This document shows positions 2,050 through 3,660 of a stretch of 30,201 bases of DNA, in pieces; position 1 is the stretch's first letter; every line of letters starts with the position of its first letter. This stretch comes from Pseudomonas phage BIBS67. The notes below the pieces were generated by a model. That model did no database searches. It worked only from the letters and a program-made list of their open reading frames with translations, and was not told the origin of the DNA. The stretch lies in sequence record PQ287640.1. The stretch is one strand, 5' to 3'. The position numbers and the translations under genes were made by a program.

Positions 2050-2815
2050 CTTTCTCCCGTCCCTCGGGCTCAGCGTGCAGACGATGCGCTGTGTAGGCCT
2101 GGACCATATGGTGTTCGGGGAATGTTTCCTTTACCTGCGCGAGAACATCGCCGGCCAGGTCCTGGAGCTGGAGCACCTGCCGGCGATCAACATGCGTTGC
2201 CGATTGGACGGCGGGTACACCATGTTACTGCCGCATGGTGAGGAACTGGAGTTCGACCAGGACGAAGTGCTGCACCTGAAAGAGTACGACGTGGAGCAGA
2301 ACATCTACGGGATACCCGACTACCTGGGCGGGCTCCAGTCGCTGCTGTTGAACGAAGCGGCGACACTGTTTCGCCGGCGCTACTACAGTAACGGCGCCCA
2401 TGCCGGATATGTGTTCTATACGAACGACGAGAACTTGTCGGAAGAAGATGAAGAGAATCTGAAACAGCAGATTGCGGCAAGTAAGGGAGTCGGAAACTTT
2501 CGCTCTATGTTCGTCAACATCCCAGGCGGCTCTGAAAAGGCGATCCAGATAATCCCGGTCGGCGATTTCCAGGCGAAGGACGAACTGGAGAAGGTCAAGA
2601 ACATAACCCGTAACGATGTTATCGCCGCTTGGCGAATGAACCCGGCGCTGGCGGGAATCATTCCGGAGAATAGCGCTGGATTCGGTGATATTGAGAAGAT
2701 CGACCGGGTGTACATGAATAACGAGATTCGGCCGATCCAACAGCTGTTCCTTCAGGTGAATGAAGTGCTCAGAGGAGACCGGCACATTGCGTTTAAAGAA
2801 GCCTCAGCAGGCTAG
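1811..2815 (+). CDS. Portal protein, P2 gpQ-like
   Basis: 334-aa ORF of typical portal size, directly downstream of terminase. An RBS-like purine tract precedes the ATG. GC content drops in its 3' third. Confidence 0.88.
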   Translation: MAKRKPRQQAQQRNGARAFSFGAPEQVLTQNIGEYLGVFASECGRIYLPPVSRQGLAKLLRANPHHGAIAPFKRNLLLRDFLPSLGLSVQTMRCVGLDHMVFGECFLYLRENIAGQVLELEHLPAINMRCRLDGGYTMLLPHGEELEFDQDEVLHLKEYDVEQNIYGIPDYLGGLQSLLLNEAATLFRRRYYSNGAHAGYVFYTNDENLSEEDEENLKQQIAASKGVGNFRSMFVNIPGGSEKAIQIIPVGDFQAKDELEKVKNITRNDVIAAWRMNPALAGIIPENSAGFGDIEKIDRVYMNNEIRPIQQLFLQVNEVLRGDRHIAFKEASAG

Positions 2816-2859
2816 CTTTATGGCAAAATAGGTTCCTGGTCGGGACCGTAGGGGGAGAT

Positions 2860-3117
2860 ATGCGGGTCTACTGTAAGTTGTGTGGATCGAAAGCGAGAAT
2901 CGCAACGCGGGAAGATATTACGCCTGAGTTCGCTAAGTTGTATTGCCAGTGTTTGGATGCTAAGGGATGCGGACATCGTTTCGTTATGAATCTCGCGTTC
3001 TCGCATACCTTGGTTCCGGCGGCGGAGCCGCTAGAGCGAATTCTGTTTGACCGTCTCCGCGAAATGCCCCGCCACCAGCAACGAGCCTTGTTCGATCAAC
3101 TGGGGTTGTTGCCCTGA
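2860..3117 (+). CDS. ogr: Ogr/Delta-family zinc-finger late-gene transcription activator
   Basis: 85 aa with CKLC...(22)...CQCLDAKGC, a CxxC-N22-CxC(x5)C arrangement like P2 Ogr. Strong RBS GGGGGAG 7 nt before the ATG at 2860. Confidence 0.8.
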   Translation: MRVYCKLCGSKARIATREDITPEFAKLYCQCLDAKGCGHRFVMNLAFSHTLVPAAEPLERILFDRLREMPRHQQRALFDQLGLLP

Positions 3118-3320
3118 CGTCCAATCTTCTCCAACAGTTTGGAGGTTCCCGCCAGGTCGCTGTTCACCCAGTTGATAATCACTTGAGCGCCTAGGCGCTC
3201 AGGCTCTGTTAGCGGAACGGAACCAACTGCCCCACTCACGAAACTAAGCGCGTGTTGTACGTCGTTAAGTTGGTCGCGCAGCTCAGTAATTGTGAGGTCT
3301 CCCATTTGCCGGTACTCCAT
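3096..3320 (-). CDS. Hypothetical small protein (MEYRQMGDLTITELRDQLNDV...)
   Basis: ORF convergent with ogr inside the reduced-GC segment. The annotated start is TTG; an internal ATG lies at 3320. No clear SD. Confidence 0.3.
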   Translation of the reverse strand: MEYRQMGDLTITELRDQLNDVQHALSFVSGAVGSVPLTEPERLGAQVIINWVNSDLAGTSKLLEKIGRQGNNPS

Positions 3321-3660
3321 GCTGGCCAATTGATGGGAGCGAACTTTATATGTCTCTATTTTGCTTGGTCAAGCACTTTTTCAGGCTTGATTTTATTTTC
3401 TGGATGTGGGGCGATGAACGGTTTTTTCTGGATTCTAGAGTGTAGATATGTTTGGCGGTGGTGGCGGTTTCGTTATTGGTATTTCAATAGAATGTTTTTC
3501 TTTTTAAATGTTTTTCTGAGTGAGAGTTTTGCACTCTTTAAAGTTGCTCGAATAGCTAATTTCTTGTTGTTTGGTGGTTGGTCTGTGCGGGTCGGGTATA
3601 TAGCTGGTTATGTTGTTATAGCGTCGCAGCTACAGTGCGCTAACTCTGGACAAAATGAGA

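Follow-up and report, generated by a model that had tools for sequence, protein, structure and literature searches.

The arrangement described below has a close described counterpart in Vibrio phage K139, in which the segment orf10–orf16 (AF125163) contains the terminase and portal genes followed by a gene for an Ogr-like zinc-finger protein (orf13), such that the ogr homologue sits between the portal and the replication genes (PMC8537503). Convergent with orf13 is a small gene, orf12, which has its own annotated promoter, and beyond orf12, an intergenic promoter region and the terminator T10 precede the last part of the early operon. Among the P2-like phages of E. coli, the cos-proximal tin/old locus of P2 has been reported to be a defence hotspot (Rousset et al. 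2022, PMC9122126): its flanks, with replication/early genes on one side and the portal on the other, are conserved, whereas what lies between them varies and has many alternatives. The Pseudomonas aeruginosa P2-like phage phiCTX (AB008550) carries, in its cos–ctx–portal region, an accessory gene just past the portal that is equipped with a promoter and terminators of its own; it retains cos and attP beyond the portal, the core of this cos being similar to that of P2. In Haemophilus phage HP1 (NC_001697), by contrast, the annotated cos lies next to int and attP, away from the portal.

The DNA analysed here is the whole 30,201-nt stretch from Pseudomonas phage BIBS67 (PQ287640.1; hereafter, the window), which looks like the entire genome, ~30.2 kb, of a P2-like phage of Pseudomonas aeruginosa whose genes follow the HP1/K139 order. 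Its large terminase is ~49% identical to that of K139 and nearer to the K139 group than to phiCTX. As in K139, terminase, portal, and ogr on the plus strand point towards the end of the minus-strand early operon, with a small convergent gene, a promoter, and a terminator in between; K139 differs in having two additional genes, orf14 in the portal–ogr interval and orf11 with its own promoter, and its intergenic part has no DNA similarity to the window. The junction also resembles the P2 tin/old locus in its position, its conserved flanks, its variability, and the defence-type cargo that relatives of the BIBS67 phage have near the portal. It differs from the P2 hotspot in three respects: the slot has no content other than a 69-aa gene, the junction includes ogr, unlike in P2, and the probable cos lies ~7.4 kb off beside attP/int, whereas the P2 hotspot adjoins cos. 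The features of the locus are the following.

1811–2815, plus strand: portal gene (gpQ-like; Pfam Phage_portal; PHROG 68, E 1e-124).
2860–3117, plus strand: ogr, encoding an Ogr/Delta zinc-finger late-gene activator (Pfam PF04606, PHROG 603).
3096–3305, minus strand: small conserved gene for a 69-aa protein, convergent with ogr; a conserved family.
3343–3372, minus strand: predicted sigma-70-type promoter of the small gene (TTGACC-18-TAAAGT).
3376–3655, no strand assigned: AT-rich non-coding spacer of ~280 nt, G+T-skewed on the plus strand, GC ~40%, replaced in relatives.
3660–3681, both strands: predicted bidirectional intrinsic terminator AAAGGGCGCCGAAGCGCCCTTT with a 9-bp stem and T-tails on both strands; conserved.
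3683–4108, minus strand: open reading frame of the last early-operon gene (141 aa), the conserved right flank of the cassette, with homologues at the same position in 38 loci.
11055–11074, plus strand: probable cos core CGGCGGGAGGGGGATAAGAG, a clade-invariant 20-mer at which a relative's record ends.

We conclude that the low-GC stretch beside the portal is an ordinary, fast-evolving variable junction between two gene blocks and not cos, and the current understanding of phage genome organisation is unchanged by these results. Specifically, we consider it likely that the locus combines a transcriptional boundary with a swap-in cassette at the point of contact between the late packaging operon and the tail end of the early one. 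The late operon (terminase–portal–ogr, plus strand) and the early operon (minus strand) would both stop at the hairpin at 3660–3681, and between this hairpin and ogr would lie a ~560-bp cassette that is swapped among relatives and carries the gene for a 69-aa helical-hairpin protein behind its own conserved, predicted sigma-70 promoter (3343–3372). The leftover ~280 nt (3376–3655) would be a spacer with no detectable sequence constraint. Because the cassette lies between ogr and the shared terminator, the small gene would lie in antisense orientation within the untranslated 3' part of the late transcript.

The initial annotation had described a fall in GC content across 2400–3660, which was confirmed on recomputation: GC content is 63.3% in 1–2400, 52.5% in 2400–3330 (51.0% in 2400–2815 and 53.9% in 2816–3329), and 39.9% in 3330–3660. 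The last of these values had been put at ~35%, a level that is reached only in the lowest 200-nt window. Among all 331-nt windows of the stretch (mean GC 0.644, sd 0.057), the lowest, at 0.396, starts at 3328; the island minimum therefore lies ~4.3 sd below the mean, and the island is the lowest-GC segment for its size in the whole window. We note that in a genome of ~64% GC, ~40% is low even for unconstrained DNA. Strand asymmetry is strong at 3401–3600 (GC skew +0.50, AT skew −0.43), and a positive GC skew is found in the gap in 42 of 50 relatives; a constraint behind the skew could account for its recurrence in most relatives. The gap between ogr and the early operon has a GC content of 0.38–0.56 in all 49 loci with the same layout, compared with 0.56–0.65 in their flanks. 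The AT-rich gap is a feature of the clade, although the terminator at 3660–3681 is the only motif that is widely conserved across the gaps. MvaT and MvaU are the H-NS-like silencers of Pseudomonas. With 40% versus ~64% GC, the island has the composition of an MvaT/MvaU target, and we infer that its AT-rich DNA may be bound by them.

The compositional step had also been read as a mosaic junction, and this interpretation was supported, albeit with boundaries other than those first given. The segment 3118–3660 has no blastn similarity to phita81A/2 and PaBSM-2607-JFK while the flanks are 91–99% identical, and similarity to phita81A/2 restarts at 3661. In total, close relatives carry at least four cassette variants (window/L008, L319, phita81A/2, and PaBSM/L009/L010) between conserved flanks. 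To judge from these alignments, ~3100–3660 is a cassette exchanged among relatives. The identity breakpoints lie at ~2700–2750, at the 3' end of ogr (~3100), and at the terminator (~3660). The GC drop at ~2400 does not mark a breakpoint, because all six closest relatives share the low-GC3 tail of the portal gene. In the window, GC3 falls from 0.82 (aa 1–195) to 0.64 (aa 196–330), the low-GC3 stretch being the final ~135 codons (about 2396–2815); this tail is 92–100% identical in 6/6 of these relatives, which have the same drop (0.64), as compared with 0.78 in 155 distant relatives. A separate donor for the low-GC portal tail was considered and rejected, as the nearest relatives are concordant and the higher identity of the C-terminal part (83% versus 70% at the amino-acid level) reflects nothing more than stronger conservation. 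No lower-GC donor lineage for the region could be identified. Next to the portal, ogr starts 44 nt after the portal stop codon and has a GC3 of 0.60; its product matches PF04606 with an E-value of 6.2e-13 (48.9 bits; cut-off, 26.3), PHROG 603 is a family of transcriptional regulators, and the portal is followed by ogr in 161 of 162 related loci. For the low GC of the spacer, the best explanation is that selection was relaxed and that lower-GC DNA, exchanged horizontally, repeatedly replaced the sequence; GC3 in the neighbouring portal tail and ogr was probably reduced in the same way.

The junction is of interest as a recombination-prone slot in which relatives place defence and toxin genes. 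Cargo in the neighbourhood in relatives includes ApeA HEPN, T5orf172, NucS-like, STAND-like ATPase, and colicin-type pore-former genes (GC 0.43–0.52); the large defence/toxin cargo is mostly in the portal–ogr interval and not in the island. In the BIBS67 slot, only the 69-aa gene was found, with no other cargo and no PADLOC-type gene. We considered that the spacer might be the decayed remnant of a lost accessory (moron/defence) gene, i.e. an emptied hotspot slot. Consistent with such a loss, AT-rich cargo lies nearby in relatives (in relative L105, for instance, a 357-aa gene separates the small ORF from the early operon), the gap varies in length from 400 to 2030 bp, and the spacer diverges faster than its flanks. 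However, among 3.3 Mb of related loci the spacer matches only L008 (82% identity versus 95–100% in the L008 flanks), tblastx and blastn searches of the same loci detected no remnant of coding similarity except in L008, and the island core had no match in the phage and plasmid collections or, as an exact 26-mer, in IMG/VR. We regard a decayed gene as possible, if rather doubtful; it is compatible with the boundary-and-cassette explanation, to which it adds only a claim about origin.

At the right end of the cassette, the hairpin at 3660–3681 consists of a nine-pair stem (6 GC pairs), a 4-nt loop, and a T-tail on each strand, it is kept in phita81A/2, PaBSM, L008, and L319, and it is located directly beyond the stop codon (3683) of the last early gene. 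These are the characteristics of a bidirectional Rho-independent terminator, which is predicted to close the minus-strand early operon and, on the plus strand, to be the first terminator past terminase–portal–ogr. No terminator-like site was found in 3117–3660, so that the first such site after ogr, and the sole terminator-like hairpin between the convergent units that had been proposed earlier, is the hairpin at 3660. The island occupies the space between this terminator and the small-gene promoter. RNA from the minus strand of the spacer would contain 28% C and 12% G, and a minus-strand C/G ratio of at least 2.5 in 100-nt windows is found at essentially two loci, the island and 11514–11753. 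We infer that such a C-rich, G-poor, unstructured read-through RNA may serve as a Rho entry site and, therefore, as a backup terminator.

The small antisense ORF mentioned in the initial annotation is, judging by its substitution pattern, a real gene under purifying selection. It has a dN/dS of about 0.15–0.3, its product has a 69-aa homologue (P0001) that is 99% identical, and members of the family occur in 47 of 49 same-layout loci, where they overlap or abut the 3' end of ogr. In the window, the gene covers the last 22 nt of ogr, including the stop codon. The longest form of the ORF reaches 3329; the ATG at 3305 and a GGAG at 3318–3315 are both kept in L319. The predicted promoter has a −35 hexamer TTGACC (3372–3367), an 18-nt spacer, and a −10 hexamer TAAAGT (3348–3343). 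It is one of only three promoter-like sites in 1–12500, each of which precedes a transcription unit, and it is kept in L319 amid otherwise unalignable DNA; moreover, a TTGACN-16..18-TAAAGT-like site with a score of at least 9/12 lies upstream of 43 of 46 family members. The hexamers, their spacing of 16–18 nt, and their conservation are those of a sigma-70 promoter, and we predict that the site is active. The earlier suggestion of a regulatory site was borne out in a simple form, by two predicted elements, a conserved promoter and a bidirectional terminator. The small protein is predicted to form a generic two-helix hairpin (pLDDT 81.5), and no match to it was found in Pfam, PHROG, PDB sequences, or by Foldseek against the PDB (best E 1.2).

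We also considered that the small gene, its promoter, and the antisense overlap with ogr form a dedicated device for controlling the late switch, acting by antisense, by transcriptional interference, or through an anti-Ogr protein, with the island housing and insulating the promoter. The near-constant placement of the family at the ogr 3' end, the conserved promoter, and the lack of a terminator between the small gene and ogr would all suit such a device; in addition, a convergent small gene, although a different one, follows ogr in the other genome layout, and the K139 orf12/orf13 genes form an analogous convergent pair. Arguing against it, these points concern position alone, the K139 orf12 protein has no detectable homology to the Pseudomonas small protein (hhalign probability 0.7%), the small protein has no recognisable fold past the helical hairpin, and it diverges fast while ogr is conserved. 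Overall, we find a control device unlikely. Slightly less likely still is its extension to the whole clade, namely that the arrangement is a dedicated late-switch brake of HP1/K139-type P2-like phages with the AT-rich island as an insulated promoter platform; such a brake could operate by transcriptional interference or antisense RNA on ogr in lysogens, by a protein acting on Ogr, or by both. A search for the P2-type Ogr-binding dyad TGT-N12-ACA gave 2 matches versus 3.2 expected, both within genes. As an uncharacterised family with a conserved predicted promoter facing ogr, the small proteins are a cheap knockout target for studies of late-gene control.

Within the spacer itself, the T-rich direct repeats listed in the initial annotation were recovered in part. 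GTTTTTCT has exactly two island copies (3494 and 3510) and a variant one T longer at 3421; the repetition is weak, as TGGCGGTGGTGGCGGTTTCG (3453) and TTGTTGTTTGGTGGTTGGTC (3564) occur once each and have in common only the 11-mer TGTTTGG(C/T)GGT, and Tandem Repeats Finder reported no repeats in the island. The statement that the island has no credible ORF holds, the sole long ORF spanning it (3252–3830, plus strand) being interrupted by stop codons in L008 (92% identical). No shared motif was found in the islands of three close relatives or, besides the terminator, over 50 gap sequences. Based on these comparisons, the spacer has no detectable constraint on its sequence. Counting against this, a 15-nt block, GTTATGTTGTTATAG (3607–3621), just inside the terminator is kept in the window, L008, and L319.

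An ncRNA locus had been suggested for the island, and we considered a small regulatory RNA, e.g. a ~60-nt plus-strand RNA ending at 3660–3681, or a cis-acting structured element. The region is non-coding, the terminator lies at its plus-strand end, and a short block beside the terminator (3597–3623) is kept in the window, L008, and L319, all of which would suit such an RNA. However, the folding energy of the spacer is no better than that of shuffled sequences on either strand (z-scores 0.37 and −0.03), no plus-strand promoter-like site was found, and the core sequence is not conserved, with similarity confined to the one 82%-identical relative. Rfam gave nothing at the gathering threshold in the whole window, and at E ≤1 in 3050–3750 only a chance microRNA model (18 bits versus a gathering score of 87). 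A regulatory RNA or structured element is, therefore, quite improbable.

A packaging site had likewise been proposed for the island, i.e. that it is or contains cos or a terminase-binding flank, as cos in P2 lies just past the portal. The island indeed lies beyond the portal, as does cos in P2 and phiCTX, its G+T-rich runs recall the G+T-rich flank of P2 cos, and the only other equally skewed locus, 11514–11753, flanks the probable cos. Nonetheless, the large terminases of the window, phita81A/2, and PaBSM are 97–100% identical while their islands are unrelated and have no common 12-mer, nor a common 16- or 20-mer with few mismatches, and the 50 same-layout gaps have no motif in common besides the terminator. 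As references, we used the known G-rich cos cores of P2 (GGCGAGGCGGGGAAAGCAC) and phiCTX (AGGCGTGGCGGGGGGACGAC); GGCGWGGCGGGG with up to 2 mismatches has 16 matches in the window versus 24 expected, with none in 3330–3660 and none in non-coding DNA, and, unlike in phiCTX, the region beyond the portal has no P2-similar core. By hand count, GGCGGTGGTGGCGGTTTCG in the island matches P2 cos at just 8/19 positions, and the cos-like core at 11055–11074 matches it at 11/19. The conserved core typical of P2-family cos sites is lacking in the island and present at 11055–11074. Given the HP1/K139 gene order, cos is expected beside attP/int and not beside the portal, and we consider it highly improbable that the island holds it.

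Several lines of evidence support that cos is probably located at 11055–11074. At the 3' end of int there is a tRNA-like attP sequence, and the 20-mer lies ~260 bp away from it, a position that fits the annotated cos of HP1; the 20-mer is invariant in non-coding DNA in 15 of 25 relatives, phita81A/2 and PaBSM both have it, and it occurs once in each of >120 IMG/VR contigs. Importantly, the linear record of UFJF_PfPro starts and ends inside this 20-mer, and not in an island near ogr, with a 10-bp terminal repeat, CCCTCCCGCC, which suggests a 10-nt cohesive end at 11056–11065, GGCGGGAGGG. The cohesive end of HP1 is annotated as 9 nt (record coordinates 1–9) and has an unrelated sequence, and no similarity of the HP1 cos junction to the window was detected. 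Two other candidates were rejected. A cos-like 23-mer, GCCGTGGGGAGGCACATCGCGCC, conserved downstream of ogr in 85 loci, is coding sequence, given its codon-like variation, its distance of ~950 nt from ogr in the other layout, and its absence from the window; a correspondence of the K139 record ends to window positions 11535–11570 had no local-alignment support and was wrongly oriented with respect to the genes on either side. A podophage RNA-polymerase fragment, which may be an assembly chimera, lies beside cos; independent copies of the junction between the two were absent from IMG/VR, and metagenomes gave two chance matches; in the literature, we found no mention of phita81A/2, PaBSM-2607-JFK, UFJF_PfPro, or the cos 20-mer. 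For annotation, this means that low GC beside the portal does not equal cos in this large Pseudomonas P2-like group, which follows the HP1/K139 plan with its probable cos beside attP/int and a putative 10-nt cohesive end.

Finally, because the island is AT-rich and non-coding and the phage encodes a P4-alpha-like primase-helicase (896 aa), we considered a replication element, either an origin or, by analogy with P4 crr, an additional cluster of iterons. This is the least probable of the readings and scarcely credible, as there are no GGAACA iterons in 3330–3660, the nearest copy being at 3690 inside the neighbouring gene. GGAACA occurs 43 times in the window versus 12.2 expected, and 16 GGAACA/TGTTCC iterons cluster in an origin-like array at 5960–6280, beside the primase gene.

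At the low-GC feature, 2400-3660, modules of a known genome plan meet in an ordinary, variable junction; of the interpretation offered in the initial annotation, the mosaic reading (as a cassette) and the regulatory reading (as promoter plus terminator) stand, and a packaging site and a supported ncRNA do not. Megablast identified two phages closely related to the window: Pseudomonas phage phita81A/2 (30,228 bp) and PaBSM-2607-JFK (29,752 bp, Peduoviridae; hereafter PaBSM). Because the window aligns collinearly along the full length of phita81A/2, circularly permuted and with its start at the terminase gene, we take it to be a complete phage genome of ~30.2 kb. 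Outside Pseudomonas, the closest large terminases are those of the K139/ESSI-2 group (~49-52% identity). The ORF listing and Pfam/PHROG scans gave the following gene order:

1 to ~1830, plus strand: P2-type large terminase
1811-2815, plus strand: portal gene
2860-3117, plus strand: Ogr/Delta zinc-finger gene (ogr)
downstream of ogr, minus strand: early genes for an Arc-like protein, two DUF7673 proteins and the primase-helicase
6355-9045, minus strand: 896-aa primase-helicase
9808-10794, plus strand: integrase (int)
after the integrase, up to 30119, minus strand: tail, lysis and head genes

The reported fall in GC held on recomputation, from 63.3% in 1-2400 to 52.5% in 2400-3330 and 39.9% in the AT-rich island at 3330-3660; the ~35% originally given for the island applies to its lowest 200-nt window and not to 3330-3660 overall. 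Among 331-nt windows across the whole sequence (mean 0.644, sd 0.057), the minimum GC of 0.396 starts at 3328. On its plus strand the island is markedly rich in G+T, and the direct repeats described there are weak: GTTTTTCT is present twice and once more as a variant, and each of the two longer strings occurs once, with an 11-mer common to both. Within the portal gene, GC3 falls from 0.82 (codons 1-195) to 0.64 (codons 196-330). Because the six closest relatives have the same drop (0.64, with 92-100% identity in that part) whereas 155 more distant relatives do not (0.81 and 0.78), low GC3 in the portal tail is a trait common to the P. aeruginosa lineage. No donor lineage for this tail was found, the C-terminal part being simply better conserved than the N-terminal part, and GC3 of ogr is low clade-wide (0.65 versus 0.80 for the terminase). 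An AT-rich gap lies at the position of the island in 49 of 49 loci with the window's ogr-to-early-operon arrangement (same layout; GC 0.38-0.56 versus 0.56-0.65 in the flanks). The fall at 2400 is compositional and does not mark a recombination boundary.

Identity to PaBSM-type relatives is at least 95% until ~2700, ~81% at 2701-2850 and ~74% in ogr. In phita81A/2 and PaBSM, ogr is the same almost to its last dozen bases, with complete divergence beyond, and blastn of 3118-3660 against both found no similarity, matches restarting at 3659-3661. Based on the identity profile and this gap, breakpoints cluster at ~2700-2750, the ogr 3' end and the terminator. At least four versions of the cassette exist among close relatives, carried by the window and locus L008; L319; phita81A/2; and PaBSM, L009 and L010. 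Thus, the proposed mosaic junction is retained as an exchangeable cassette (3118-3660, without a blastn match), not as a recombination boundary at 2400.

The small antisense ORF (3096-3305) noted initially is, on sequence evidence, a real gene. In the alignment of the window with L319, a conserved stretch runs from the -35/-10 pair via GGAG to the ATG at 3305, giving a 69-aa product; the protein is about 69-70% identical between the two, and three comparisons gave dN/dS values of about 0.15-0.3. A gene of the same family (65-76 aa) converges on ogr in 47 of the 49 same-layout loci, usually overlapping the ogr stop by 9-18 nt, and other-layout loci have a different small convergent gene after ogr. 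A profile search returned only Pseudomonas "hypothetical proteins"; the protein had no match in Pfam, PHROG or PDB, and its AlphaFold model, a two-helix hairpin (pLDDT 81.5), had no significant structural neighbour. We note that the second layout (L013, L020, L024 and about 100 others, about two thirds of related Pseudomonas prophages) has a ~61-aa convergent gene (MLDR...ERRLI..YR motif) 56-90 nt beyond ogr; some 2 kb further on lies a primase gene on the plus strand with only ~31% identity to that of the window.

Two predicted elements flank the spacer of the island:

3372-3343, minus strand: predicted sigma-70 promoter of the small gene (TTGACC-18-TAAAGT), within the first ~45 nt of the island
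3660-3681, both strands: hairpin, putative bidirectional terminator (9-bp GC-rich stem, T-runs on each strand), directly past the last early gene

Only three sigma-70-like matches occur in 12.5 kb, the other two preceding the early operon and hicAB, and a similar promoter-like site lies upstream of 43 of 46 small-gene family members. The hairpin is the sole motif widely kept in the relatives' homologous gap. This conserved pair supports the suggestion that the island is a regulatory site. Because no terminator was found directly after ogr, late transcripts should run from ogr across the small gene and island to the hairpin. Across 3.3 Mb of related loci, the spacer itself (3376-3655, ~280 nt) matches only L008 (82% identical, versus 95-100% in the L008 flanks). 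It gave no Rfam match, and neither strand showed a folding signal (z = 0.37 and -0.03), arguing against an ncRNA locus. It contains no conserved ORF; ORF 3252-3830 is interrupted by stops in L008, in line with the original view that the island lacks a credible ORF. A minus-strand transcript of the spacer would contain 28% C and 12% G with almost no structure (-24 kcal/mol for 284 nt), and C/G ratios this high are essentially confined to two loci of the genome. C-rich, G-poor, nearly unstructured RNA is typical in composition of Rho entry sites; by this likeness, the spacer RNA may be a Rho entry site serving as a backup terminator. A short block at 3607-3621, GTTATGTTGTTATAG, lies about 40 nt in from the terminator and is conserved among the window, L008 and L319; outside it the spacer cannot be aligned with L319.

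K139 has the same plan: terminase, portal, orf14 and zinc-finger gene orf13, on which orf12 with its own annotated promoter converges; orf11, terminator T10 and the early operon end lie beyond. This position of the ogr homologue in K139 has been remarked on (PMC8537503). Because orf12 has no detectable homology to the Pseudomonas small protein, the likeness is positional only. In P2, the tin/old locus between the replication and portal genes is a documented accessory/defence hotspot adjoining cos (PMC9122126), whereas the window's probable cos lies by attP/int. The portal neighbourhood behaves as a hotspot in relatives, given the AT-rich cargo beside it (2-6 kb, GC 0.43-0.48), inserted between portal and ogr in four loci and after ogr in L105:

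L156: 6946-11690
L157: 6952-11955
L159: 6988-10126
L160: 6946-12880
L105: 7296-9330

The products include ApeA-type HEPN (PDC-S58), T5orf172 (PDC-S57), a NucS-like nuclease, an ORC/STAND-like ATPase, a colicin-type pore-forming-domain protein and several proteins without a family match. The window's own slot holds the small gene only.

The island had also been considered a candidate packaging site. Against this, no motif common to the islands of phages with 97-100% identical large terminases was found, and the P2/phiCTX cos core is absent from the island. In 15 of 25 relatives with a neighbouring protein only 52-86% identical, the non-coding DNA past the last tail gene holds an invariant 20-mer, CACTTATCCCCCTCCCGCCG. 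This 20-mer is single-copy in each of >120 IMG/VR contigs and also present in phita81A/2 and PaBSM. Its reverse complement, CGGCGGGAGGGGGATAAGTG, matches P2 cos at 11 of 19 positions by hand count, and no published report of it was found in the literature. The linear UFJF_PfPro record ends in ...CACTTATCCCCCTCCCGCC and starts with CCCTCCCGCCGACGG..., a 10-bp terminal repeat inside the 20-mer as expected for filled-in cohesive ends, from which we infer a 10-nt cohesive end, GGCGGGAGGG. The corresponding sites in the window are:

11055-11074: probable cos core (20-mer with a single mismatch); the tRNA-like attP sequence at the int 3' end is about 260 bp away
11514-11570: displaced right flank of the probable cos

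The 20-mer at 11055-11074, adjoining attP/int and not the portal, is the probable cos of the clade; the HP1 record has cosL annotated beside attP/int, and the K139 gene order agrees with this location.

Directly after GGCGGGAGGGGGATAAG lies a ~440-bp insertion (11073-11513) that phita81A/2 and PaBSM lack. Over most of its length it shares 91.5% identity with a segment of the RNA polymerase gene from lytic podophage HHBS14_1 (83.6% with LKA1 gp37); this part (about 11084-11451, minus strand) has several frameshifting indels. After the insertion comes a degenerate second cos-like copy, ACGGCGGGGGATAGTGCG. The insertion is either a decayed lytic-phage gene fragment captured next to cos or a chimeric assembly that bridges the cohesive ends; no independent copy of the junction was found in IMG/VR or metagenomes. 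The integrase gene 3' end (about 10745-10800) contains a tRNA 3'-half-like sequence, GGGCCCACACGGACTCGAACCGTGGACC..., probably the attP core. The phita81A/2 record ends map nearby (window about 10657-10890), suggesting that this record was cut at prophage boundaries.

GGAACA occurs 43 times genome-wide versus 12.2 expected, and 16 GGAACA/TGTTCC iterons in both orientations cluster at 5960-6280, just 3' of the primase-helicase gene, together with an AT-rich stretch (6210-6262). A replication origin of the iteron type (P4-alpha kind) is probable here; the island, which has no such iterons, was rejected as an origin. Two further genes were assigned from their sequences:

11626-11847, plus strand: likely hicA of a toxin-antitoxin pair
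11875-12279, plus strand: likely hicB of the same pair

Between the probable cos and the tail operon end, positions 11607-11640 hold a near-consensus promoter and a palindrome.
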